Assembly: GCA_964536865.1 (NCBI GenBank)
Contig: CAZHYN010000003.1
Coordinates: 9,822-73,821 of the forward strand
DNA length: 64,000 bases
Direction: 5' to 3'
Source: an uncultured Planctomycetia bacterium
GTDB lineage: Bacteria; Omnitrophota; Gorgyraeia; Duberdicusellales; 4484-171
In this document: positions 13,306-35,262 of the stretch, one piece after another
Position numbering within the stretch: the stretch's first letter is position 1
Layout: every line of letters starts with the position of its first letter
Notes under the pieces: generated by a model
What the model was told of the DNA's origin: nothing
Seen by the model: only the letters and a program-made list of their open reading frames with translations
Databases searched by the model: none
Made by a program: the position numbers and the translations under genes

Positions 13306-15355
<2,050 letters not shown>

Positions 15356-15368
15356 AACTTTTTACACT

Positions 15369-16376
15369 CTACACTTCCACTTCTCTTAAGAACTTTGCTG
15401 CCTCTTCTGGCAAAGTAGGACATATATAGAAACCTGTTCCCCACTCAAATCCTGCTACTTGAACTAGCCGGGGAGTAATCTCTATATGCCAGTGATAATC
15501 TTCGTCTATCGTTGACCAGTATCCTGGATAAGGTCGCCTAAAGGGAGCGGTATGAATGATATAATTGTAAGGAGGATCAGCTAACAGTATTTTTATTTTT
15601 AGAAGAACCTTCTTAAGTAGACTGGCCAAAGAAAAAAGGTTTTCCCAAGAAGTTTTGTAGAAATCAGGGGAGTGTTCTTTGGGAAGAATCCACACCTCAA
15701 AGGGAAAACGGGGAGCAAAAGGAACTAAAGCTACAAAACCATTCTCCTCTAAAACCACCCTTTCCTGTTCCTTTAACTCTTGCCTTATCAAATCGCAGAA
15801 TACACATCTTTCATGATAATCATAATAAAATTTAGCTCCTTCCAACTCTTCTTTTACACGTTTTAAGTTAACAGGGGTAGCAATAATTTGTGAGCGAGAG
15901 TGTCTCACTCTTCCTCCTCCTGCATCCCATCCGTAGTTTTTAAATACCAAAACATACTTTATCCGCATATCTTCCTGTAAAGCTCTTATTCTCTCACAGT
16001 AGGCCCAAAATACATCTCTTATATTTTCTATTTCTAAGTCTGCCATATTAGCAATATGTTCAGGAGTATCTATAACAACTTCATGACTACCCACTCCTTC
16101 CATCAAATCATACGGTCCTTTTCCCTTCTTCCACGACTCTTTATCAGGCTCCAAAAAAGGTTTAATACTAGGAACGACTCTTACTCGCCAGTTTCCTTGA
16201 TCATCTTTTATGGAATACAACTCTCCAGGTGTTAACGCTTCTTTACCTCGACAGAAAGGACACTCTTTCTCAGGGGGAGAAGTATCTATATGAGGAAAAT
16301 CCTTTGGTCTTTTAGCACGTTCAGTAGAAATTATCACCCATCTTCCCAGAATAGGATCTTTTCTTAACTGAGGCAT
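15369..16376 (-). CDS. GalT-like HIT-superfamily paralog (copy 2) in which the nucleophile His of HxHxQ is replaced by Arg (RHSRSQ)
   Basis: Paralogous to copy 1 (CPFC, shared blocks KNYGWDAGG.../FEWGTGFY). Start placed at MPQLRKDP. The HxHxQ motif reads H-S-R-S-Q. Confidence 0.65.
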   Translation of the reverse strand: MPQLRKDPILGRWVIISTERAKRPKDFPHIDTSPPEKECPFCRGKEALTPGELYSIKDDQGNWRVRVVPSIKPFLEPDKESWKKGKGPYDLMEGVGSHEVVIDTPEHIANMADLEIENIRDVFWAYCERIRALQEDMRIKYVLVFKNYGWDAGGGRVRHSRSQIIATPVNLKRVKEELEGAKFYYDYHERCVFCDLIRQELKEQERVVLEENGFVALVPFAPRFPFEVWILPKEHSPDFYKTSWENLFSLASLLKKVLLKIKILLADPPYNYIIHTAPFRRPYPGYWSTIDEDYHWHIEITPRLVQVAGFEWGTGFYICPTLPEEAAKFLREVEV

Positions 16377-22310: not shown

Positions 22311-22435
22311 GATTAGTAAACCCCGAACCACGCCTTTCCAGGCGTGGCTTTGGAGTATACCCTTCGGGTCTTTTGATATGCATTCATCCACGGCTTTACC
22401 TCGCCCTTTCAAGGAAAGGGCGAGGTGGCTTTCTG
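22311..22435 (-). repeat. GC-rich structured repeat element, copy A (candidate ncRNA/cis-RNA; in the 5' leader of pcm)
   Basis: About 125 nt, bounded by CCCCGAACCAC...GTGGTTCGGGG. Three internal hairpins, including a perfect 12-bp stem CCTCGCCCTTTC/GAAAGGGCGAGG. A second copy sits at 27998-28121 with compensatory changes. Confidence 0.6.
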
Positions 22436-22866
22436 TGGTTCGGGGTAAACTCTTCCTCACTGTCTTAAAACCTCGCTATTGAAATAACAAATACTTACTA
22501 GCCTAACTAATGTGATTTATTATATCATAAATTGTATACTTTTAATCTAAACTTACTGATACATAACAAAAAGTTAAATCTCTACTATAGTTATGGAAAG
22601 AATAAACTCAACAATAGTCTTTTTATGATATTTATTACATTCTTACTTAGAAATATAAAGAAAAGACTATCGATTAACTAGAAAGCACCTCGGAAGGTAA
22701 AACTGGTTACTAAAGCTCAAAACTTTCTATTTGTCTATTGAAAACATTCCTCTCTGTTATACGTAATAGAACAACTCACCATTTAGATTTAGAAAGAGTT
22801 TAGAGGATTAAATTCATAAAAATGACTATCCTTATATCTCTTCTATTATTGTAGGGGATATCTTAG

Positions 22867-26463: not shown

Positions 26464-27004
26464 GTTATCTTAACACTTAAACAGTAGCTTAATCCTAAAA
26501 TCTCTAAAGCAATCATTGTGATTATCCAGACTATTTTTAAATAAAATAAATTTGTTACTATTAAGCTGGAATTTGATTTAGAGCTCCCTCTACTTAGAAG
26601 GTTAGTTACTCCTATCCAAGAACATAGATTCACAAGGTTTGACTTAATTGATTTCTTCGTTATAAATCTCCTATAATGACTAAGGTTACCATAAACCTCA
26701 TTACAAATAGGGAATACCTAAAGATTAGGTATTATATATAGAAGCAATTTTAAAGATGGATGGACTAACTACTTCAAATATAAAGAGTTGTAGTTGATAT
26801 CCCTATTTATCGCCACCCTAAAATGAACTTCTTATATTAACTTTAAGGCTAAATTATTCCTACACTATACACCCTAATACTTTTCAGTACTATTGTCAAG
26901 ATAAAAATGTTTGGAGTATGTGTCAAGTATTTGGGGGTAGCTTTTTTAATGTTAGTTTGTCAAAAGGTTTAATGTAGACCTAACCCAGCCTGTCTATCAT
27001 TCAT

Positions 27005-27154
27005 CGTCTTTTAACGTTTTCACGTTCATACGTTTATACGTTCCCACGTTCATACGTTTACACATTTTTACGTTCTCACGTTTACACGTTCCCATGTTTA
27101 TACGTTCTCACGTTTACACGTTTATACGTTTTAACGTTTATACGTTTTAACGCC
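27005..27154. repeat. tandem array of about 19 x 8-bp units (ACGTTYWY core)
   Basis: ...TAACGTTT TCACGTTC ATACGTTT ATACGTTC CCACGTTC ATACGTTT ACACATTT TTACGTTC TCACGTTT ACACGTTC CCATGTTT ATACGTTC TCACGTTT ACACGTTT ATACGTTT TAACGTTT ATACGTTT TAACG... Strict 8-bp periodicity; no reading frame. Confidence 0.85.
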
Positions 27155-27997
27155 TTTGACATATTATTTTAAAAACATTTTCCCAAGTTAAAGGGCATCC
27201 AGAAAAAATATAACAAAATTTATTGCGATAGCAATTAAAATTGTTAACATTTGATTCCTAAGCTAAAGGTTTATTTATTAAAGGTTTGTTCCTTCTCTCC
27301 GGCTAAAATCCTTAATCTTATGCAACATTTCAGTTTCAAACAAAAATGTTGCACATCATTTTTATTTCCAGTGAATCCCTTTTACAAATTTCCCATTATT
27401 CACAAAAAAGAAAAACTACTACTATTCTTCCCTTCCTACTACCTCACTAAATTTTACACTAACCAACAAAATTTCTGAAGATGCAGTTCGTTAGGTAAAT
27501 TTTATGATATTCCAAATTCTTCAGCTCAACCTCGCAGGTTAATTTGGTTGTTTCCACTCCTGGGGTGGAAATTGCAAATTTTTATCTCTGCCATAAAAGC
27601 TTCAGATAATTTGTAAAACAGAATTATAGTTAAATACATTTATCTTTTTGCTATTGCAATGTAAAGACGATAGAGACCTCCGTTGTTAAAGAAGATACCT
27701 TCATTTCTTCAGGTATAGGTGGAAAAGGTTGGGCTCTTTTTATTGTAGAGATTGCTTCTTTATTTAAGATATTAAAACTTGATGACTTTATAATTTTGAT
27801 ATCTCTGGCAAAACCTGTAGATAAATATGAATACCTACTGCTAAAATATGTGCTACAGGACTTCTTGATTCTTTACATAACTTTTCTGCTTCCTCTAATT
27901 TGCTTTCCAGCAATAATTTCTTTACCTGAGCAGTTAGATTACCTACATTGGTCTTTATCCTGTAAAAGTGCCACAGTTTTCCTAAAACAATAACAAA

Positions 27998-28121
27998 CCC
28001 CGAACCACAGGTTTATACCCGTGGCTTTGGGATGCCTCCTTCAGGTCTTTGATATACATTCATCCCCGACTTTACCCCGCCCTTTCAAGGAAAGGGCGGG
28101 GTGGCTTTCTGCGGTTCGGGG
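27998..28121 (-). repeat. GC-rich structured repeat element, copy B
   Basis: Co-linear with copy A over about 124 nt. Base-pair covariation is seen in three hairpins. Remaining mismatches become G-U wobbles only when the element is read on the minus strand. Confidence 0.6.
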
Positions 28122-28361
28122 TAAAAGCTATTACTGAACATAACAAAATCGGCTAAATTAAAAGGCCACCTTTTAAGAAGAATTTGAGCATAAAAACCTT
28201 TTTTCTCCGGTTATCTATTTAACAACGGCTGGAGGGTTATTTTTTATAAATGATTGCCTCTTTACCTAAAACTTCATTGATGCCTCACCAAAAAAGTATT
28301 AAGGTATTATCTCCATTTTCTTTGATACTCTTCTTAAAAAATGAGGCAAATTAAACTTCTT

Positions 28362-29378
28362 CTAAAATGTCCACATCCCTCCACATTTAATCACAAAATC
28401 CTCCTTCCAACCTTTCTTAGCCTTATAGTCCCAATCAATTCCTACAAATACTTTTTTATGATGTCCAGCCTCTCCTCTTAATGGAGAATATACAAATTTT
28501 AAAGCCAAAGCATGCCTATAACGTTCAATATGTGATTTATATTGAGGGTTACCCGGAGCTGTTACTCTTATCTTTTCTTCAAATTCATTAGGTTTAATTT
28601 GTATCCATCCTATAGGACCACCTACTAAGGTAAATTTTTTATCAGGAAAAGGGGAATATTCTACAAAGAACTTATAGCCAATTATATCTCCAACTTCCTC
28701 ATCAGATTTACCCCAACCACTCACATCTCTTCTTTCTCCTATCAAATCATAAAAAATATGGTTACAAAGTTCAACTTTATCAGTAAGCTCTTCGGTAGAT
28801 AATAAAGCTATTCTTAACACATTAGCTCCTCTGCTCTCATTTCCTAACTCATTTTTTAATCCTTCTTTTTCAGTAACATCAAATTTATAACCTAACCCAA
28901 TTGCTGCATCTATATTTTTGAAAATTCCTATAGTCTGTTTATCTATAAATTTATATTTTCCTGAAATCCAAATTTCGGTTAAACCATTATCTTTTTTAGT
29001 GCACCATTTACCTGAACCCGGCCTTTTACCTCCTTTGCAATTTAGCTGGTGAGTCTCATACTTTCTATCTATCCATTCATAAGTAAAGAGAAGCCCTACA
29101 TCAAACTTATCAGTTAAACCATATCCTAAACGAAGGTCTATCTTATCTCTTTTAGAATTCCAGCCCGAAGGCAAATCTTCTATTTTTCCTGTAGCAGGAG
29201 ACCAGTACTTTTTATGTTCAATATGCCTGTAAAGCACTTTTGGCCAGAATTCTCCTTTCTTTAATCCATGGGGGCAACCGGTTACTCTTTCTGCAATTGC
29301 GTTCTCTGAAAACAAAAAGGAAATTACAATTGTTACCACCCCAAACAAAAATACCGAGTTTCTAAACAGATATCTCAT
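28362..29378 (-). CDS. putative outer-membrane beta-barrel protein
   Basis: Signal peptide (MRYLFRNSVFLFGVVTIVISFLFSENAIA), an alternating amphipathic pattern, and a C-terminal ...GGMWTF ending in Phe. Confidence 0.5.
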   Translation of the reverse strand: MRYLFRNSVFLFGVVTIVISFLFSENAIAERVTGCPHGLKKGEFWPKVLYRHIEHKKYWSPATGKIEDLPSGWNSKRDKIDLRLGYGLTDKFDVGLLFTYEWIDRKYETHQLNCKGGKRPGSGKWCTKKDNGLTEIWISGKYKFIDKQTIGIFKNIDAAIGLGYKFDVTEKEGLKNELGNESRGANVLRIALLSTEELTDKVELCNHIFYDLIGERRDVSGWGKSDEEVGDIIGYKFFVEYSPFPDKKFTLVGGPIGWIQIKPNEFEEKIRVTAPGNPQYKSHIERYRHALALKFVYSPLRGEAGHHKKVFVGIDWDYKAKKGWKEDFVIKCGGMWTF

Positions 29379-29491
29379 CCTGAACCTCCTTTCAATAAAA
29401 ATTCTAATTTAGGGAACAAAGTGAATGTATTTACCTTCATCTACACTCCATAAATTGGGAGGTCCCCGACCATAGATAACTCTACAATTAT

Positions 29492-29677
29492 TCATTTCTC
29501 TATCTGCCTTGCTTTTTTCCGTAACCTCTTCAGGCTCAAAATAACCTTTTTAAGGGAATTTGAACAGTCATACTCTTGAGGAAAACAAAGCCTGCTTTTA
29601 TCTTTTAAACCCTCTACTATTAAATTTAATTTCCTGACTTCTCCTTCCAACAATCGGGCAAAGGTAACTCTACTCAT
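29492..29677 (-). CDS. hypothetical small protein (61 aa), translationally coupled to the upstream small ORF
   Basis: Its start overlaps the stop of ORF 29670..29870 (ATGAGTAG). Basic C-terminus. Confidence 0.3.
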   Translation of the reverse strand: MSRVTFARLLEGEVRKLNLIVEGLKDKSRLCFPQEYDCSNSLKKVILSLKRLRKKARQIEK

Positions 29678-29870
29678 CTTTATAAAAATCTTCTTTAATT
29701 AAATCTTTTAAATTTATATCCATAAGTTTTGAACTTGCCTCTTTAATCATCAAACTAAATTCTTCAAAAGCTTCTTCTGTAAAGTGTAAAGTTATGCCTT
29801 TAACACGAACGTGAATTATTCCATGGGGACACTTAAAAATACTTCCCATCCTGTTTTTAGCAAGTTCCAT
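29670..29870 (-). CDS. hypothetical small protein (66 aa) with an iron box in its promoter
   Basis: The ORF lies 91 bp downstream of a DtxR/IdeR-type box at 29961-29979. No family recognized. Confidence 0.35.
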   Translation of the reverse strand: MELAKNRMGSIFKCPHGIIHVRVKGITLHFTEEAFEEFSLMIKEASSKLMDINLKDLIKEDFYKDE

Positions 29871-29960
29871 ATATTCTCCTCCTTTTAAGGTATCTCAAAG
29901 GTTAAAGTGGCTGTGTAACTTAATTTATTACATTTATCTTTTAAATTATCTAAATTATCT

Positions 29961-29979
29961 TTTTGTTAGGCTCACCTAA
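29961..29979. promoter_or_regulatory. DtxR/IdeR-type iron box (16/19 to TTAGGTTAGGCTAACCTAA)
   Basis: TTTTGTTAGGCTCACCTAA, with palindromic core GTTAGG-CTCA-CCTAAC. Located between the feoB stop and the small ORF pair. Confidence 0.55.
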
Positions 29980-29996
29980 CATTTTCTTTAAAAAAA

Positions 29997-31994
29997 TTAT
30001 CCTGTAAAAATCCTACCTATCTGATAGAGAAAAACACTTAAAACCCATCCTAAAATTAAACTGTAGGAAACTGCTAAAGCAGTCCATTTCCAGTTGGTTT
30101 CTTTTTTTATAGTAGCAATTGAAGCAATACAGGGAATATAAATTAAAGTCATTATTAAGAAAGCGTAGGCTGATAAAGGGGTAAACTGTTGCAATAAGAC
30201 TTCTTTTAAACCTTCCTCAGATGCTCCATATAAAGCCCCCAGAGTCCCCACAACAACTTCTTTTGCTAAAATTCCAAACAAAAGGGCAACAGATGCCTGC
30301 CAGAAACCGAATCCTGCAGGTTTAAATAAAGGAGCTAAAATTTTCCCTAACTTGCCAATTAAAGAGTTTTCTCCTGCATATTCAACCCCAAAAGGAAGAC
30401 TTGATAAAAGCCAGATAAATACAACCGCCAAAAATATAACTGTTCCTGCCTTTTTCACAAATAAAGAAGATCTCGTCCACATAGATAAAAAGACACCTCT
30501 TGGTGTTGGCACTCTGTAAGGTGGAAGTTCCATAACCAAAGGGGCAACTTCTTCTCTAAAAAATATATGTTTAAAAATTTTGGCTACAAAAATTGCTAAA
30601 ACTATCCCTAAAAGATATAAAGAGAATACAACTAATCCCTGATTCTTAGGGAAAAAAGCTGAGGCAAAAAGGATATAGACAGGAAGACGTGCTGAGCAAC
30701 TCATCAAAGGGTTAACCAGAATCGTTAAAATCCTATCCTTTCTTGATTCAAGAGTCCTTGTTGCCATAATTCCAGGAATATTGCATCCAAATCCTAAAAG
30801 CATAGGAATAAATGATTTTCCATGCAATCCCAAAGCATGCATAAATCTATCCATAACAAAAGCAGCTCTTGCTAAATATCCAGAATCTTCTAAAATTGAT
30901 ATCCCCAAAAATAGAAGCATAATATTGGGTAAAAAAACTAAAACTGAACCCACTCCACTAATTATCCCATCAGATACTAAAGAACAGAGCCATAAAGGAA
31001 GATTTTGATTTTCAAAAAATAGTTTTGCGTTTTGGGCTAATTTGCCAAAAAATCCATCAATTAAATCAGCAAGAGGTGTTCCCAGACTAAATACCAACTG
31101 AAACAATAAATACATAAAAAATAAAAATAAAGGGATTCCCAAGATACGATTGGTTAAAACTTTATCTAATTTATCAGAAAAAGTAAGGCGAGTCTCTAAA
31201 GAGATTTCTTTTTTAACACATTCTTTAACCATGCCTTTCAAGAAAGCATATCTTTTCTCAATTATAAATGTCTCTAAATCCTCTCCACTGATATGAGTAA
31301 TTTCTGTCTCTGCTTTATCTTTTATCTTTTCTATCTGGGGAATAACCTCTTTTACTTCATTTAACAGGTCAAAATCTCCCTCTAAAATCCTTAAACTCAA
31401 GCCTCTCTCAGGGACATCAAAAATCTTTTTATCTTTAAAAAGCTGACTAATTTCTTCTATTATTTTTTCTAAATCGTGATAATCTATTTTAAAGATTCTC
31501 TTTTCTTTTTTTCTTAAATTCTCTATAATCTTTTCTCTTAACTCTTTAATACCTTCTCCTTTTGAGGCAACAGTTTCTACAATATCTATTCCCAAAATTT
31601 TGGAAAGTTTTTGAGTATCAATCTTAATATTAGCTTTTTTTACTCTATCCATCATATTTAAATCTAAAAGAACAGGCTGTCCTATCTCTAAAAGCTGAAT
31701 TACAAGATAAAGGTTTCTTTCTAAATTTAAGGCATCAATTACACAGACAACTAAATCTGGTTTTTCTTTAATTAAGAAATCACGGGCTATTCTTTCATCA
31801 ACAGAATATACACTTAAACTATAAGTTCCTGGCAAATCCACAACCTCTATTTTCTCATCCTGATAAGTAAAATACCCTTGTTTTTTCTCAACTGTAGTTC
31901 CTGGCCAGTTCCCTATTTTTTCTCTTGCTCCACAAAGATAATTAAATACTGTAGTTTTCCCTGAGTTAGGATTTCCTGCTAAAGCAATCTTATA
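29997..31994 (-). CDS. feoB: ferrous iron transporter B
   Basis: N-terminal G-domain ([21 protein letters not shown]) plus a polytopic C-terminal permease. Start placed at MYKIALAG. Confidence 0.9.
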
Positions 31995-32211
31995 CATACT
32001 CAACAAAGATTTTAAAAGAGGCTCCTCTTCCCAAAGCTATCCTTGAATTACCTAGAGAAATCAAAATAGGCCCTCTTGTATTATTTAACACCTTTATAAT
32101 TTCTCCTTCATTTATTCCCATATTCATAAGTTTTAATACAAGGCCTCTTCCTCCAGCTATTCTTATAATTCTTACCAATTTATTCTCTTCTACCATGGAT
32201 AAAGGTATCAT
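31990..32211 (-). CDS. feoA: FeoA family protein
   Basis: 73-aa SH3-like FeoA ([38 protein letters not shown]). Confidence 0.75.
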
Positions 32212-32435
32212 AAAATTTCAACAATTACTTTTTCTGCTTCTTCCTTTCTTAAACTTATATGAGTATTTTTTACCAAGACATCAAAAGGTGAGCCTAAAGG
32301 AGCAATTTTTTTTATCTCTACTGTTTCACCTTTTATAAATCCTAAACTTAAAAGTTTGCTTTTTAAAATGCCGGTATCAGTTATCTTCAATATTTTTGCT
32401 TTAGTGCCAACTTTTAAATCACTTAATTTAACCAT
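32208..32435 (-). CDS. feoA: FeoA family protein (second copy)
   Basis: 75 aa; LSDLKVGTKAKILKITDTG...LGFIKGETVEI. Confidence 0.75.
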   Translation of the reverse strand: MVKLSDLKVGTKAKILKITDTGILKSKLLSLGFIKGETVEIKKIAPLGSPFDVLVKNTHISLRKEEAEKVIVEIL

Positions 32436-32931
32436 ATTTAGAGATTTTGGTCTTTAAAGCTCTGATTTTACATCCAGGAGGTCTTTTTCTATGCTCAACA
32501 AAATAATAAAAGCTATCTAACCAATCGGGTTTGCCGTGCGGACAGGTCTCAATAAAATTTATAAACTTAACGATTCTCTCAAGTGTCTCTCTACTTAAAT
32601 AATGCTCAATTCTACAGGCATCTTCTTCTGAAGTTTTCTCGTTTATCCCTAAAATTTGATGGAAGAATTTCTTTAATGTAATATGTCTTTCGTAAAGTTT
32701 TTTAGCTAAATTAACACCTTCTTGGGTTAACTCAATATAGCCGTAATGTTGATGAATAACTAATCTTTTTTCTTTTAATTTCTCTAAAGCCTCGACAGCA
32801 GAAGAAGCTTTTACTTTTAGGTGTTTCGCTAAATCTTTAACCCTTGCCACACCTTTTTCTCCTCTAAGGATAAAAATCCCCTCTATATAGTCTTCTAAAG
32901 AAGGGGAAATACCTAAAACTTGAGCCTTCAT
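32428..32931 (-). CDS. DtxR/IdeR/MntR-family metal-dependent transcriptional repressor
   Basis: 167 aa with a winged-HTH N-terminus (SPSLEDYIEGIF...VARVKDLAKHLKVKASSAVEALEKL) and a dimerisation/metal-binding region. Heads the feoA-feoA-feoB operon. Confidence 0.75.
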   Translation of the reverse strand: MKAQVLGISPSLEDYIEGIFILRGEKGVARVKDLAKHLKVKASSAVEALEKLKEKRLVIHQHYGYIELTQEGVNLAKKLYERHITLKKFFHQILGINEKTSEEDACRIEHYLSRETLERIVKFINFIETCPHGKPDWLDSFYYFVEHRKRPPGCKIRALKTKISKYG

Positions 32932-32946
32932 CCTTCACCTCCTATA

Positions 32947-32979
32947 TTAGGATGTCCTAATTATATTAGGCTAACCTAA
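32947..32979. promoter_or_regulatory. tandem iron boxes in the dtxR-feo promoter
   Basis: TTAGGATGTCCTAA (32947-32960) and TTATATTAGGCTAACCTAA (32961-32979; 17/19 to the IdeR consensus). They lie 30-45 bp upstream of the regulator start codon. Confidence 0.65.
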
Positions 32980-33055
32980 CTTTGTCAAGAAAAAATTTGA
33001 ATACTTTCCCATTCTTTGTGCAACTTTTTTAAGATAAGAGAAGCTCTTTGAAAAG

Positions 33056-34024
33056 GTGGAGGTCTTAAGGGCAAAATGCCTGAATCCCTCATGCCCTATA
33101 AGGTCTTTTATCATACTTCCCGAAGGCATAGAGAAATTTGCCCGGGCCACAGAGAGACTAAAGAAGGAAGCGTTGTGTGGAATCATAAATGATAATTCCA
33201 CTACCCCCAGGATTTCCCGGCGCTTTGAAAGGGTGTTTAACACCACCGGCTCCAAGTCTTCCATTGACCGTTGGAAGCATGAGGCGGCGGATAAGCTGAG
33301 TGCCAAGGAGATCATCGCAAGATTGAACTTCTCCGGTATCCTCTGTATTGATGAATATAAACCCAAGCGGTATAAGGGCTATGACTTAATAGACTCTGAT
33401 GCTAAAACCTCAAGAATACTCTATCTTGAAAAGGCCTATGGTTTAGGCAGGGGCGTTGTCAAAGAGCATTTTCAGACAATAAAATCGCTGGGTATTGAAC
33501 CTTGGGCAATAATCTTTGATATGCGGGCCTGCTTCCCTAAAGCAGCCAAAACTGTCTTCGGCAAAGATATTATCATCCAGCATGACTACTTCCATGTAAT
33601 GAAGATAATCCACTACCACCTAAATAGGGCGATGGCTGAATATAGAAGAATCTTAAAAGAGCAAGGCATAGATACTTTAGATATCTGGCTTGCCCGCTGG
33701 GTTATCCTAAAGAATATGGAACGCTGGAGTTTTAAAGAGTGCAGAATCATCGAAAATCTTCTTGCCAAATATCAGGGAACAACCATTGAAGATATCCTTA
33801 TCTTAAAACAAAAGATTAGAGATATATTCATTGCGTCTAAAAGCCAACAGGAAGCCTATTTAAAACGGGATGCTCTTACCAAAGAAAACTGGTATTTTAA
33901 GAATAAACACTTTGCCAATATCATTAAATTCTTAAATACACCATACTTCAGATACATAACCACATTCTTAGATCATCCAGAGATACCCAAGAGTGGCAAT
34001 TCAGAGAATGTAATCCGTACCTGA
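33056..34024 (+). CDS. ISL3-family transposase, copy 1 (lacks the N-terminal zinc finger; stop before the conserved C-terminal peptide)
   Basis: ILCIDEYKPKRYKGYDLIDSD, the ISL3 DDE block. Ends ...GNSENVIRT-TGA, and the conserved C-terminal piece MEKVRYGF...KLYQIYRYLGGK continues in frame at 34031-34129. Confidence 0.6.
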   Translation: MEVLRAKCLNPSCPIRSFIILPEGIEKFARATERLKKEALCGIINDNSTTPRISRRFERVFNTTGSKSSIDRWKHEAADKLSAKEIIARLNFSGILCIDEYKPKRYKGYDLIDSDAKTSRILYLEKAYGLGRGVVKEHFQTIKSLGIEPWAIIFDMRACFPKAAKTVFGKDIIIQHDYFHVMKIIHYHLNRAMAEYRRILKEQGIDTLDIWLARWVILKNMERWSFKECRIIENLLAKYQGTTIEDILILKQKIRDIFIASKSQQEAYLKRDALTKENWYFKNKHFANIIKFLNTPYFRYITTFLDHPEIPKSGNSENVIRT

Positions 34025-34287: not shown

Positions 34288-35262
34288 ATGGGGAAAGAAG
34301 CAAGAGTAAAAGTTATTAAGAGTCGTGTTCCTAAATGGGTTATCTGCCCATTTTGTGGAGTAAAACAACCTTTTAAGAAAGAAAGAGGAAATTGGCGTAT
34401 GGTAAAAGATATTAACCTTGATAAATCTCTCCTTCTTAAGGTCCAAACTATTTATGCTAAATGCTTAAATCCTCATTGTCAAAGAAATAGCTTTGCTTTA
34501 CCAAATGGTTTTGAAAAATATCAAAGAGCAACAGATAGATTTAAACAAGAAGCTTTGAGTGGTTTAATCTGTGATAACTCTACCTTACCCAGAGTAGCTA
34601 AAAGATTTAATCGCATATTTAATACTACTGGCTCTAAATCTACCCTTGATAGATGGAAGCGCAAAGAGGCAGATAAATATGATTTTAAACAGATTATCTC
34701 TAAATTAGGTTTCGGTGGCATTCTCTGTATTGATGAGTATAAGCCTAAACGCTCTAAAACCTATGACTTAATAGCTTCTGATAGATTAACTGAGAGGATA
34801 CTCTATTTGGAGAATCTGCCTAAAATATATTCTCCTAAAGCAAAAGGTGGTATTGTTGCTAAAGGCTTAGTGGAAGATTTTGCTTATAAATTAAAGGATT
34901 TTGGCTTAAATCCTTTTGGGTGTATAGTGGATTTAGCCAGTGTCTACCCTAAACAGCTCAAAAAAGTTGAGCCTGGTGTAATTATCCAGTTTGATTACTT
35001 CCATATAGTTAAGATAGTATACTGGTATCTTAAGAATGCTATTAAGAGCTTCAGGGTATCCTTAAGAGAAACTGATGAAGTAGCTTATTCTGATATTTGG
35101 AAGCATAAATGGCGAATATTAAAAAACTTTGATAAACTATCCCTTAAAGAACATCTAATCTTAGAATACCTTATGAAGCGTTATAAGGCAACTTTAATAG
35201 AAAAAGTATTAATTTTCAAAGAGCAGGTAAGGGATATATTTAATTTATCTCAAACCCCTTAA
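34288..35262 (+). CDS. ISL3-family transposase, copy 2 (zinc finger present; frameshift and in-frame TAG before the C-terminal peptide)
   Basis: N-terminal CPFCG...C..HC knuckle and an ILCIDEYKPKRSKTYDLIASD block. After ...LSQTP the reading continues in the +1 frame, hits an in-frame TAG near 35441, then the MEKVRYG...KLYQIYHYLGGKV peptide runs to about 35536. Confidence 0.6.
   Translation: MGKEARVKVIKSRVPKWVICPFCGVKQPFKKERGNWRMVKDINLDKSLLLKVQTIYAKCLNPHCQRNSFALPNGFEKYQRATDRFKQEALSGLICDNSTLPRVAKRFNRIFNTTGSKSTLDRWKRKEADKYDFKQIISKLGFGGILCIDEYKPKRSKTYDLIASDRLTERILYLENLPKIYSPKAKGGIVAKGLVEDFAYKLKDFGLNPFGCIVDLASVYPKQLKKVEPGVIIQFDYFHIVKIVYWYLKNAIKSFRVSLRETDEVAYSDIWKHKWRILKNFDKLSLKEHLILEYLMKRYKATLIEKVLIFKEQVRDIFNLSQTP

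Follow-up and report, generated by a model that had tools for sequence, protein, structure and literature searches.

The classical miniature inverted-repeat transposable elements (MITEs) of bacteria include Correia, Nezha, BOX and others, and the transposase-less derivatives of IS200/IS605 elements are known as PATEs. The small dispersed repeats (SDR) that Elhai et al. described from Nostoc in 2008, a study to which PMC3116915 refers as its reference 43, are said to be very small hairpin repeats that nest in each other and have no known transposase. REPINs and REP-BIMEs, which are composites of REPs (repetitive extragenic palindromic elements), are short, GC-rich, palindromic, mostly extragenic, non-autonomous and present in high copy number, and they are mobilised by RAYT enzymes of the Y1 HUH type (PMC3116915, PMC3733652, PMC3333891). 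In the model proposed for REPINs the unit folds into one long hairpin or, alternatively, into several smaller ones that form a 'clover', and REPINs insert into each other (PMC3116915). REPs carry the tag GTAG or CGTC, and Y1 transposases associated with long terminal inverted repeats have also been described (PMC3733652). In IS608, a member of the IS200/IS605 family, cleavage on the left takes place at TTAC, 19 nt 5' of the hairpin, the left guide sequence AAAG stands just 5' of the hairpin foot, and cleavage on the right takes place 10 nt 3' of the right hairpin (PMC3201880, PMC5934647). Here, a hairpin-rich repeat is compared with these systems. Two copies of it, A and B, lie in a stretch of 64,000 nt (the window; contig CAZHYN010000003.1 of assembly GCA_964536865.1, positions 9,822-73,821, forward strand) from an uncultured bacterium labelled Planctomycetia and placed by GTDB in the Omnitrophota, and the main subject is copy B, at window positions 27998-28121.

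A dispersed family of hairpin-forming repeats

The core of copy B is a GC-rich segment of 124 nt in a window of 34% GC, and on the minus strand, from 28121 to 27998, it reads CCCCGAACCGCAG...CTGTGGTTCGGGG (in full, CCCCGAACCGCAGAAAGCCACCCCGCCCTTTCCTTGAAAGGGCGGGGTAAAGTCGGGGATGAATGTATATCAAAGACCTGAAGGAGGCATCCCAAAGCCACGGGTATAAACCTGTGGTTCGGGG). The first-pass annotation of this DNA had marked the segment as a structured element that could be either the 5' domain of a long non-coding RNA (ncRNA) or an element that moves independently. Its coordinates proved exact, its predicted fold is strong (z = -5.9) and a second copy is present at 22316-22449. Independent movement was supported by 36 further copies in genomes and 32 loci in metagenomes, which lie in unrelated flanks, and by two exact empty sites. 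Copy B is considered, with a probability of roughly 0.8-0.9, to be a member of a small, non-autonomous, hairpin-forming family of mobile DNA repeats (MITE/REPIN-like) of Omnitrophota-lineage bacteria.

The genome copies were recovered with the query CCCCGAACCNCAGAAAGCCAC in a scan of one genome per species. Thirty-three of the 36 belong to the Candidatus Omnitrophota metagenome-assembled genome (MAG) JBBIPY01 (~45% GC), and the remaining three to two 35%-GC MAGs labelled Planctomycetia. The metagenome loci range from 27 to 46% GC, and a scan of viral contigs for the element gave 0 matches. Proteins named Candidatus Omnitrophica share 82-87% identity with the FeoB protein of the window. No two copies have related flanks, apart from TTTA on the 5' side in 37 of 37 cases and TTTAC on the 3' side in 26 of 28, and nothing is conserved beyond these pentamers.

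The constant ends of the family, TTTA-CCCCGAACCAC...GTGGTTCGGGG-TTTAC, form an inverted repeat of 11-12 bp, (A)CCCCGAACCAC / GTGGTTCGGGG(T), which is invariant in the alignment. The full-length form of 113 nt is organised as TTTA-CCCCGAACCAC-AGAAAG-H1-ATGAATG...CCCGAAGGG...CCAAAG-H2-TTCGGGG-TTTAC, where H1 (consensus CCACGGC TGTAAA GCCGTGG) and H2 (CCACGGG TGTAAA CCCGTGG) are near-identical hairpins in direct orientation, each with a 7-bp stem and a TGTAAA loop. Forms of 53 nt hold one hairpin, the arms of which are often of H1 type on one side and of H2 type on the other, and this mixture points to a collapse of H1 and H2. Longer forms contain extra small palindromes (modules a, b, d and e) inside the TGTAAA loops. 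On the opposite strand these loops read TTTACA, the family's own flanking and target motif, and module b is itself bounded by TTTA...TTTAC. Both copies in the window are full-length and carry module d in H1, and in copy B this nested hairpin takes the place of most of H1.

A sister family (L005 5484-5592, minus strand; L017 292-437, plus; L022 5927-5996, plus) has the ends CCCCGTTAGAAAG...CTTTCTAACGGGG and the same architecture (AGAAAG + hairpin + ATGAAAG ... AGAAAG + hairpin) with different stems, and its 39-nt collapsed form is the module b that is nested in most copies of the JBBIPY MAG. At locus L016 two abutting elements have one common TTTA. At L037 (1218-1330) a full-length element of 113 nt, and at L044 (2416-2501) a short form with a nested palindrome, stand between flanks that are 97% and 88% identical. 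These differing interiors suggest that an element was restructured where it stood, that copies underwent gene conversion or that a single site was used more than once.

No ORF of at least 90 aa is overlapped by 26 of 38 copies, and the nearest end of a gene is often 7-40 nt away. When copies in the copy-rich MAG were compared with the genes beside them, orientation was 12 same/same versus 11 opposite/opposite, which shows no bias in this low-powered sample (n = 23). On these fragmentary contigs the count also serves as a proxy for orientation relative to replication.

Filled and empty sites in exbB

When the window was compared by BLAST with the fetched loci, locus L060 was found to join window position 28123 straight to 27997. 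The empty site in L060 reads ...TTCAGTAATGGCT-TTTGC-TATTG..., while the filled site in the window reads ...TTCAGTAATAGCT-TTTA(CCCC...GGGG)TTTGT-TATTG.... At the empty site L060 encodes an intact MotA/TolQ/ExbB protein of 218 aa (Pfam E 9e-31), followed by ExbD (E 7.6e-15). A second empty site was present in an intact exbB gene of L079, which reads ...AGCC-TTTGC-TATTG where L060 has ...GGCT-TTTGC-TATTG, and across both sites the exbB reading is GC(T/C)-TTT-GCT. The FeoB protein of L079 is 94% identical to that of the window. In L078, a strain that shares 94% identity with the window, copy B occupies this position too, and its right flank is TTTGC. The element is therefore polymorphic for presence and absence with exact boundaries, L060 and L079 being empty and the window and L078 filled at the same exbB codons. 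The insertion lies in codons 22-24 and, because it is 128 nt long, shifts the reading frame of the exbB remnant.

Junctions and target

The native site, as given by the two empty sites and by the right flank in L078, is TTT-GC, and the filled site is TTT-A-CCCC...GGGG-TTT-GC. The net gain at copy B is A-CCCC...GGGG-TTT, 128 nt, or any circular permutation of it through TTT. The pattern is repeated at L013, where the left junction is TTTA and the right TTTGC. These junctions show that the left TTTA travels with the element, that the right RY is native, and that the target is a TTT/RY pentamer with the consensus TTTAC, the slash marking the junction. A target duplication of 4-5 bp was refuted by the left TTTA as against the native TTTG in copy B and L013, and a duplication of 2 bp (TT) or 3 bp (TTT) is indistinguishable at the junctions from sequence carried by the element. 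The IS608 rule, by which an element ending in TTAC inserts 3' of TTAC, was refuted for the AAAG-hairpin strand by the two empty sites and L078. The junctions are compatible with three descriptions, namely TTT/AC nicks at the target and at each end of the element, an insertion that on the other strand lies 3' of RYAAA, or a 12-bp inverted repeat with a TT duplication. The first of these would resemble the nicking of ATT/AC at circovirus and geminivirus origins, where the motif stands in a hairpin loop.

Comparison with described systems

The family resembles REPINs in being short, GC-rich, palindromic, mostly extragenic, non-autonomous and of high copy number, in forming either one long hairpin or a clover of smaller hairpins, and in its clustering, mosaics and mutual insertion. 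It differs from them in its tag, which is TTTA and TTTAC (GTAAA on the other strand) rather than GTAG or CGTC, and in that no RAYT gene was found adjoining any copy in the part of each genome that was covered. Whereas a REPIN consists of two inverted REPs, the element consists of two direct internal hairpins and a terminal inverted repeat, and, again unlike REPINs, the family is nearly unchanged among genomes of very different GC content. With IS608 the element shares two similar sub-terminal hairpins in direct orientation, AAAG at the hairpin foot, TTAC in the flanking pentamer and a strict target specificity without classical duplication. The spacings are 16-17 and 10-12 nt, compared with 19 and 10 in IS608, and the copy-rich MAG contains a Y1_Tnp gene with hairpins of like geometry. 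However, the spacings and guide sequences do not fit when the other strand is considered, and the element, unlike IS608, has terminal inverted repeats.

Classical MITEs are likewise 50-180 nt long, have terminal inverted repeats and an AT-rich specific target, occur in multiple copies, differ in presence and absence between strains, occasionally disrupt genes and form modular variants. In contrast to these, the empty sites found here allow no duplication of at least 3 bp, unless it is a TTT that cannot be told from carried sequence, and the self-nesting in the element's own hairpin loops is unusual; nor was a parent insertion sequence (IS) with the element's ends found in 534 kb of fetched loci and the window. 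The Nostoc SDR, which offer no more than a lead here, belong to another phylum and have other sequences. The element has the generic features of a MITE, lacks the REP tags and departs from the IS608 insertion rule, and it is filed under neither of the latter two families. A paper-library search for the end sequences returned unrelated papers only, and a recent Omnitrophota genome preprint makes no mention of such repeats. The sequences of the family are new and of a kind already known, and at this locus copy B is an ordinary decaying transposon copy in a pseudogene.

Fold, RNA signals and divergence of copy B

As RNA, the minus strand of copy B folds at -66.3 kcal/mol, compared with a shuffle mean of -42.0, and 0 of 200 shuffles were as good (z = -5.9). 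As DNA, the z-scores are -5.9 for the minus and -4.6 for the plus strand, and both strands fold stably as DNA and as RNA. The unit has two competing folds, one with a long closing stem and one with H1 and H2, which correspond to the long hairpin and the clover; the closing stem and H2 are mutually exclusive because the 3' terminal inverted repeat overlaps the 3' arm of H2. A 12-bp GC stem had been annotated within the element, and a stem is indeed present, but it is the 13-bp hairpin of module d at 28074-28102. The loop of this hairpin (28087-28089) lies in CCTTG in both window copies and in CAAGG, the reverse complement, in L078 and L014/L051; such a loop flip between strains would be as expected for strand switching in a palindrome.

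The covariance models of Rfam 15 gave 0 matches at the gathering score in the whole window. Over the locus, with E up to 10, only chance-level matches were seen, the best having 16.6 bits against a gathering score of 50, and no riboswitch family was among them. The search for tRNA and tmRNA genes found none. A promoter scan upstream of copy B gave nothing above shuffle expectation and there was no intrinsic-terminator match there, while the scan for promoters and terminators at copy A gave a single match, the module-d hairpin on the plus strand. A retron, a riboswitch and a ribozyme had been considered from the shape of the fold and were rejected, as there was no Rfam match and no orientation bias. 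A pair of iron-responsive small RNAs, considered from the Feo, DtxR and ferritin context, was dropped after dozens of copies had been found in unrelated contexts.

Divergence between the window and L078 is 9.0% in copy B, compared with 6-14% in pseudogene and spacer segments and 3.2% in the neighbouring 338-aa ORF. The H2 stem of copy B is broken in L078, and the orthologous copies L041, L048 and L061 carry a decaying module-d hairpin. Copies A and B of the window are separated by two compensatory changes, one of which is C-G to U-A in the module-d stem. In an alignment of 12 full-length copies, three covarying pairs were found in H2 and one in H1, and 87.8% of cells were paired, compared with 84.0% after shuffling. 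Mismatches in the stems comprised 10 G-T and 19 A-C, with no G-T excess and neither strand favoured in this strand-specific wobble test. Purifying selection and strand-specific pairing would be expected of a functional ncRNA, and neither was seen. Judging by these divergences, copy B is decaying neutrally at the rate of the surrounding pseudogene. The structure appears to matter for spread and not for a role at this locus, where copy B is most likely functionless, and no RNA role is required to explain it.

Candidate mobilising enzyme

In the mechanism proposed here, a trans-acting, single-strand HUH enzyme (Y1, IS200/IS605-RAYT type) would recognise the hairpins and would nick TTT/AC at both ends of the element and at the target. 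Copy B entered exbB codons 22-24 by the TTT/RY rule, and the gene is now a pseudogene in which the copy decays. As TTTACA is displayed in the hairpin loops of the family itself, elements could insert into each other and so build mosaics. Granted that the repeat is mobile, the assignment to an HUH enzyme is tentative and falls a little short of even odds; a DDE enzyme would be unlikely, and the remaining weight lies with other mechanisms. It is doubtful that the family represents a previously undescribed class of self-nesting single-strand transposons, in which an HUH enzyme nicks TTT/AC at the ends and target. Possibly, too, transcription of the conserved full-length form of 113 nt yields a structured RNA on which the mobilising enzyme draws.

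Candidate enzymes were sought by phmmer, using approximate IS200 TnpA and E. coli RAYT queries, by a hidden Markov model (HMM) built from 118 IS200-type proteins, by searching for lone left ends with a distant right end, and on contigs that carry TnpA homologues; an IS200 clade whose ends differ was all that came to light. None of the copies encloses a tnpA or tnpB gene, the window contains no Y1 (HUH) gene, and no RAYT gene flanking the repeats was detected by phmmer or the IS200-type HMM in the element-carrying loci, which are a part of each genome. One Y1_Tnp gene is present in the copy-rich MAG, at L025 5739-6170 (Pfam E 1.3e-30; phmmer E 1e-17), and a copy lies 550 bp away from it; phmmer and the HMM detected no second Y1 protein in the element-carrying loci. 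This gene and its homologues have sub-terminal hairpins, CCCCRCC-TGTAAG-GGYGGGG, with a 7-bp stem, the same geometry as the element and nearly the same loop. The IS200-type element concerned (143-aa TnpA; L025 5660-6200 and L068-L077) is widespread in metagenomes, mostly on contigs of <1.5 kb, and on the right it is bounded by TTCTTYAT, which stands 8 nt beyond the hairpin. In the repeat family, AAAG stands before both hairpins and TTAC occurs in both flanking pentamers, a pair that is also seen at the left end of IS608. With a nick at TTT/AC, cleavage on the right would fall 10 nt 3' of H2; the junctions place cleavage either at TTT/AC or on the other strand, where the IS608 pairing rule does not fit.

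Alternative explanations

Several observations weigh against a mobile repeat driven by an HUH enzyme. No transposase gene bounded by the element's ends was found in the 534 kb of related loci or in the window, and the fetched IS200 relatives have different stems and guide sequences and lack the ends of the element. The native pentamer lies 3' of the element, and not 5' as in IS608, and the left TTTA is borne by the element. A target preference for hairpin loops was unsupported, with 4 of 42 reconstructed chromosomal targets in such loops versus 54 of 600 control TTTAC sites. Some of the covariation in H1 and H2 might also stem from a structural function of the element once inserted. Inverted repeats at the termini are more characteristic of DDE-type MITEs, and in L008 (206-350) a 26-nt palindrome, CCCGTTAGAGAAATTTCTCTAACGGG, sits within the ATGAAT motif of a full-length element with a duplication of 6-8 nt on either side, a junction that is unlike the TTTA and TTTAC type and looks like a staggered-cut event. 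These last two observations favour a rival account, by which the same non-autonomous element is moved by a classical DDE transposase as a MITE with a 12-bp terminal repeat (ACCCCGAACCAC / GTGGTTCGGGGT) and a TT duplication in T-TT-AC. With the flanking A and T counted in, the inverted repeat at the ends is 12 bp long and perfect, the TT duplication fits the sites exactly (GCTT(TT)GC becoming GCTTTT-element-TTGC), and the random orientation relative to genes agrees as well. On the other hand, no DDE gene with these ends was found in the same 534 kb and the window, where the sole transposase ORF is of ISL3 type with unrelated ends; such a model leaves the AAAG motifs and the conserved internal hairpins without a function; and we know of no IS family that would match a strict 5-nt target together with a 2-bp TT duplication. 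Movement by a DDE enzyme is improbable.

Rather less probable is a REP-like element kept by the host, in which termination, mRNA stabilisation or the binding of a protein such as gyrase or IHF, by DNA or RNA in either orientation, would be primary and mobility secondary. Structural roles of this kind have been proposed for REPs (PMC3733652), and most copies are intergenic, often near a gene end, with hairpins that are very stable on both strands, H1 and H2 pairing retained through compensatory changes, and persistence across genomes of 27-46% GC. Yet copy B lies in a pseudogene and changes at a neutral rate, its H2 stem is broken in L078 and the hairpin is decaying in L041, L048 and L061, there is no intrinsic-terminator match at copy B, and the stem mismatches have no strand asymmetry. 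A structured ncRNA gene, or the 5' domain of a long minus-strand ncRNA across 28125-26464 as the first-pass annotation had suggested, is very improbable. The strong predicted fold, the two compensatory changes between A and B, the GC-rich sequence in a 34%-GC genome and the lack of a long minus-strand ORF downstream would all suit it, but the downstream DNA is an exbB/tonB pseudogene that is continuous through the empty site in relatives, about 70 other copies lie in unrelated flanks with random gene orientation, and Rfam matches, an above-chance upstream promoter-like site and an excess of G-U over A-C are all missing from a sequence that diverges neutrally. Copy A lies 71 nt upstream of a start codon, and this placement, together with the mutually exclusive helices (long closing stem versus H2), could be taken to suggest a cis-regulatory leader or riboswitch. 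This is scarcely credible, however, as copy B precedes no intact gene, orientation in the copy-rich MAG is unbiased with unrelated genes downstream, and no riboswitch family was matched even at E up to 10. The non-autonomous mobile repeat accordingly remains the preferred explanation of copy B.

The remnant iron-uptake cluster around copy B

In L079 the genes are ordered dtxR - feoA - feoA - feoB - TonB-dependent receptor - DUF4198 - exbB - exbD - tonB. Of the last three genes, parts of exbB and tonB were found in the window (Table 1). Codon 13 of the exbB pseudogene is a stop (TGG to TAG, 28153-28155), and exbB homology ends after about codon 80. A deletion of 1.3 kb fused the exbB remnant to a tonB remnant, and the missing part corresponds to L079 10728-12038, which holds the 3' part of exbB, exbD and the 5' part of tonB. 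The segment 28191-27651 thus reads as the remnant of a dead exbB-exbD-tonB operon, which makes up about 540 nt of the supposed ORF-free region and is interrupted by copy B.

Table 1. Copies A and B, the parts of copy B and the gene remnants on either side of it (window coordinates)
Feature	Position	Strand	Sequence or remark
Copy A	22316-22449	-	Module composition as copy B; canonical flanks TTTA...TTTAC
Copy B, whole insertion unit (core with flanking pentamers and junctions)	27993-28125	-	TTTA + core CCCC...GGGG + pentamer TTTGT
TTTA carried by copy B	28122-28125	-	5' junction
5' terminal inverted repeat of copy B	28111-28121	-	CCCCGAACCGC (family consensus CCCCGAACCAC), then AGAAAG
Nested hairpin of copy B (module d)	28074-28102	-	ACCCCGCCCTTTC-CTT-GAAAGGGCGGGGT, 13-bp stem
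Central segment of copy B	28029-28067	-	GGGGATGAATGTATATCAAAGACCTGAAGGAGGCATCCC; motifs ATGAATG and CCYGAAGG conserved family-wide
AAAG and second sub-terminal hairpin (H2) of copy B	28005-28028	-	CCACGGG-TATAAA-CCTGTGG, 7-bp stem, 6-nt loop
3' terminal inverted repeat of copy B	27998-28008	-	GTGGTTCGGGG, overlapping 3' arm of H2
Native target pentamer of copy B	27993-27997	-	TTTGT; TTTGC in strain L078 and in the empty sites
exbB/tolQ pseudogene, codons 1-23	28126-28191	-	MLKFFLKGGLLI, stop, PILLCSVIAF
exbB pseudogene continued, ~codons 23-80	27825-27997	-	Other frame; protein 71% identical to intact L060 ExbB
tonB C-terminal remnant, 58 codons	27651-27827	-	Ends in VFTLQ and a stop; Pfam TonB_C E 3.3e-8

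The unit of copy B begins 236 nt beyond the stop of the 338-aa ORF (28362-29378, minus strand), in agreement with the earlier estimate of about 230 nt beyond the 3' end of the neighbouring gene. The 1.5 kb downstream had been described as non-coding, and no minus-strand ORF of at least 50 aa was found in 26634-28361; what did not stand is the first ~540 nt, which are the exbB/tonB remnant. Outside the remnants there is 1.18 kb (26464-27650). As annotated, it contains an 8-bp array (27010-27147), which comprises 17 tandem TTTAYACG-like units in which TTTAC recurs, and the first of two TTGC-N4-GCAA palindromes, TTGCGATAGCAA at 27223-27234; the tonB remnant ends at the second, at 27648-27659. Further small inverted repeats are present in 26464-27650, and no homologue of this segment was found in L060, L078 or L079.

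A comparison of window 27642-32989 with L079 showed that the receptor and DUF4198 genes (L079 7840-10406) have been lost in the window and that the window has gained 1.67 kb (28207-29875), which holds two small ORFs and the 338-aa ORF, for which Pfam gave no match. Where the window has the 338-aa ORF, L060 has a short member of the repeat family of copies A and B.

The candidate long ncRNA is in this way removed, and a history takes its place: an iron-uptake cluster, which in relatives runs feoAB - TonB-dependent receptor - exbB-exbD-tonB, was taken apart by deletions, a nonsense mutation and a mobile-element insertion. A previously undescribed repeat family is also defined in the Omnitrophota, a phylum represented almost exclusively by MAGs. 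Short-read assemblies break at the family's copies, and the family can inactivate genes and is common, nearly unchanged, to genomes of 27-46% GC. Its exact ends, target rule and empty sites make it a test case for target choice and nesting in REPIN- and MITE-like hairpin elements, and it could be used as a marker for strain typing and MAG quality.

Copy A and other repeats in the window

Copy A is 85% identical to copy B across 134 nt (E 1.8e-33). It is intergenic, 71 nt upstream of the start codon of pcm (PCMT, protein-L-isoaspartate methyltransferase) and downstream of a ferritin gene that lies 417 nt away. Mismatch searches and a repeat scan of the window found no third copy. Logan short-read contigs of the same genome (SRR7517633; L034, L035) break off at three points, namely inside copy B (28073), shortly before copy A (22490) and at 27386. 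The repeat accounts for the first two of these, an explanation that does not cover the break at 27386.

On the plus strand, an ORF of 322 aa at 33056-34021 matches Pfam DDE_Tnp_ISL3 (E 8e-14) and overlaps small minus-strand ORFs. A direct repeat of 124 nt with 70% identity lies at 33309-33432 and 34691-34814. This is probably an ISL3-type insertion sequence or its remnant, with ends unrelated to the hairpin element. Another direct repeat, of 74 nt and 72% identity, was found at 14508-14581 and 15544-15617. It contains TATGAAT-N-ATATAATTGTAAGGA, and one possibility is that a promoter or leader was duplicated upstream of paralogous genes.

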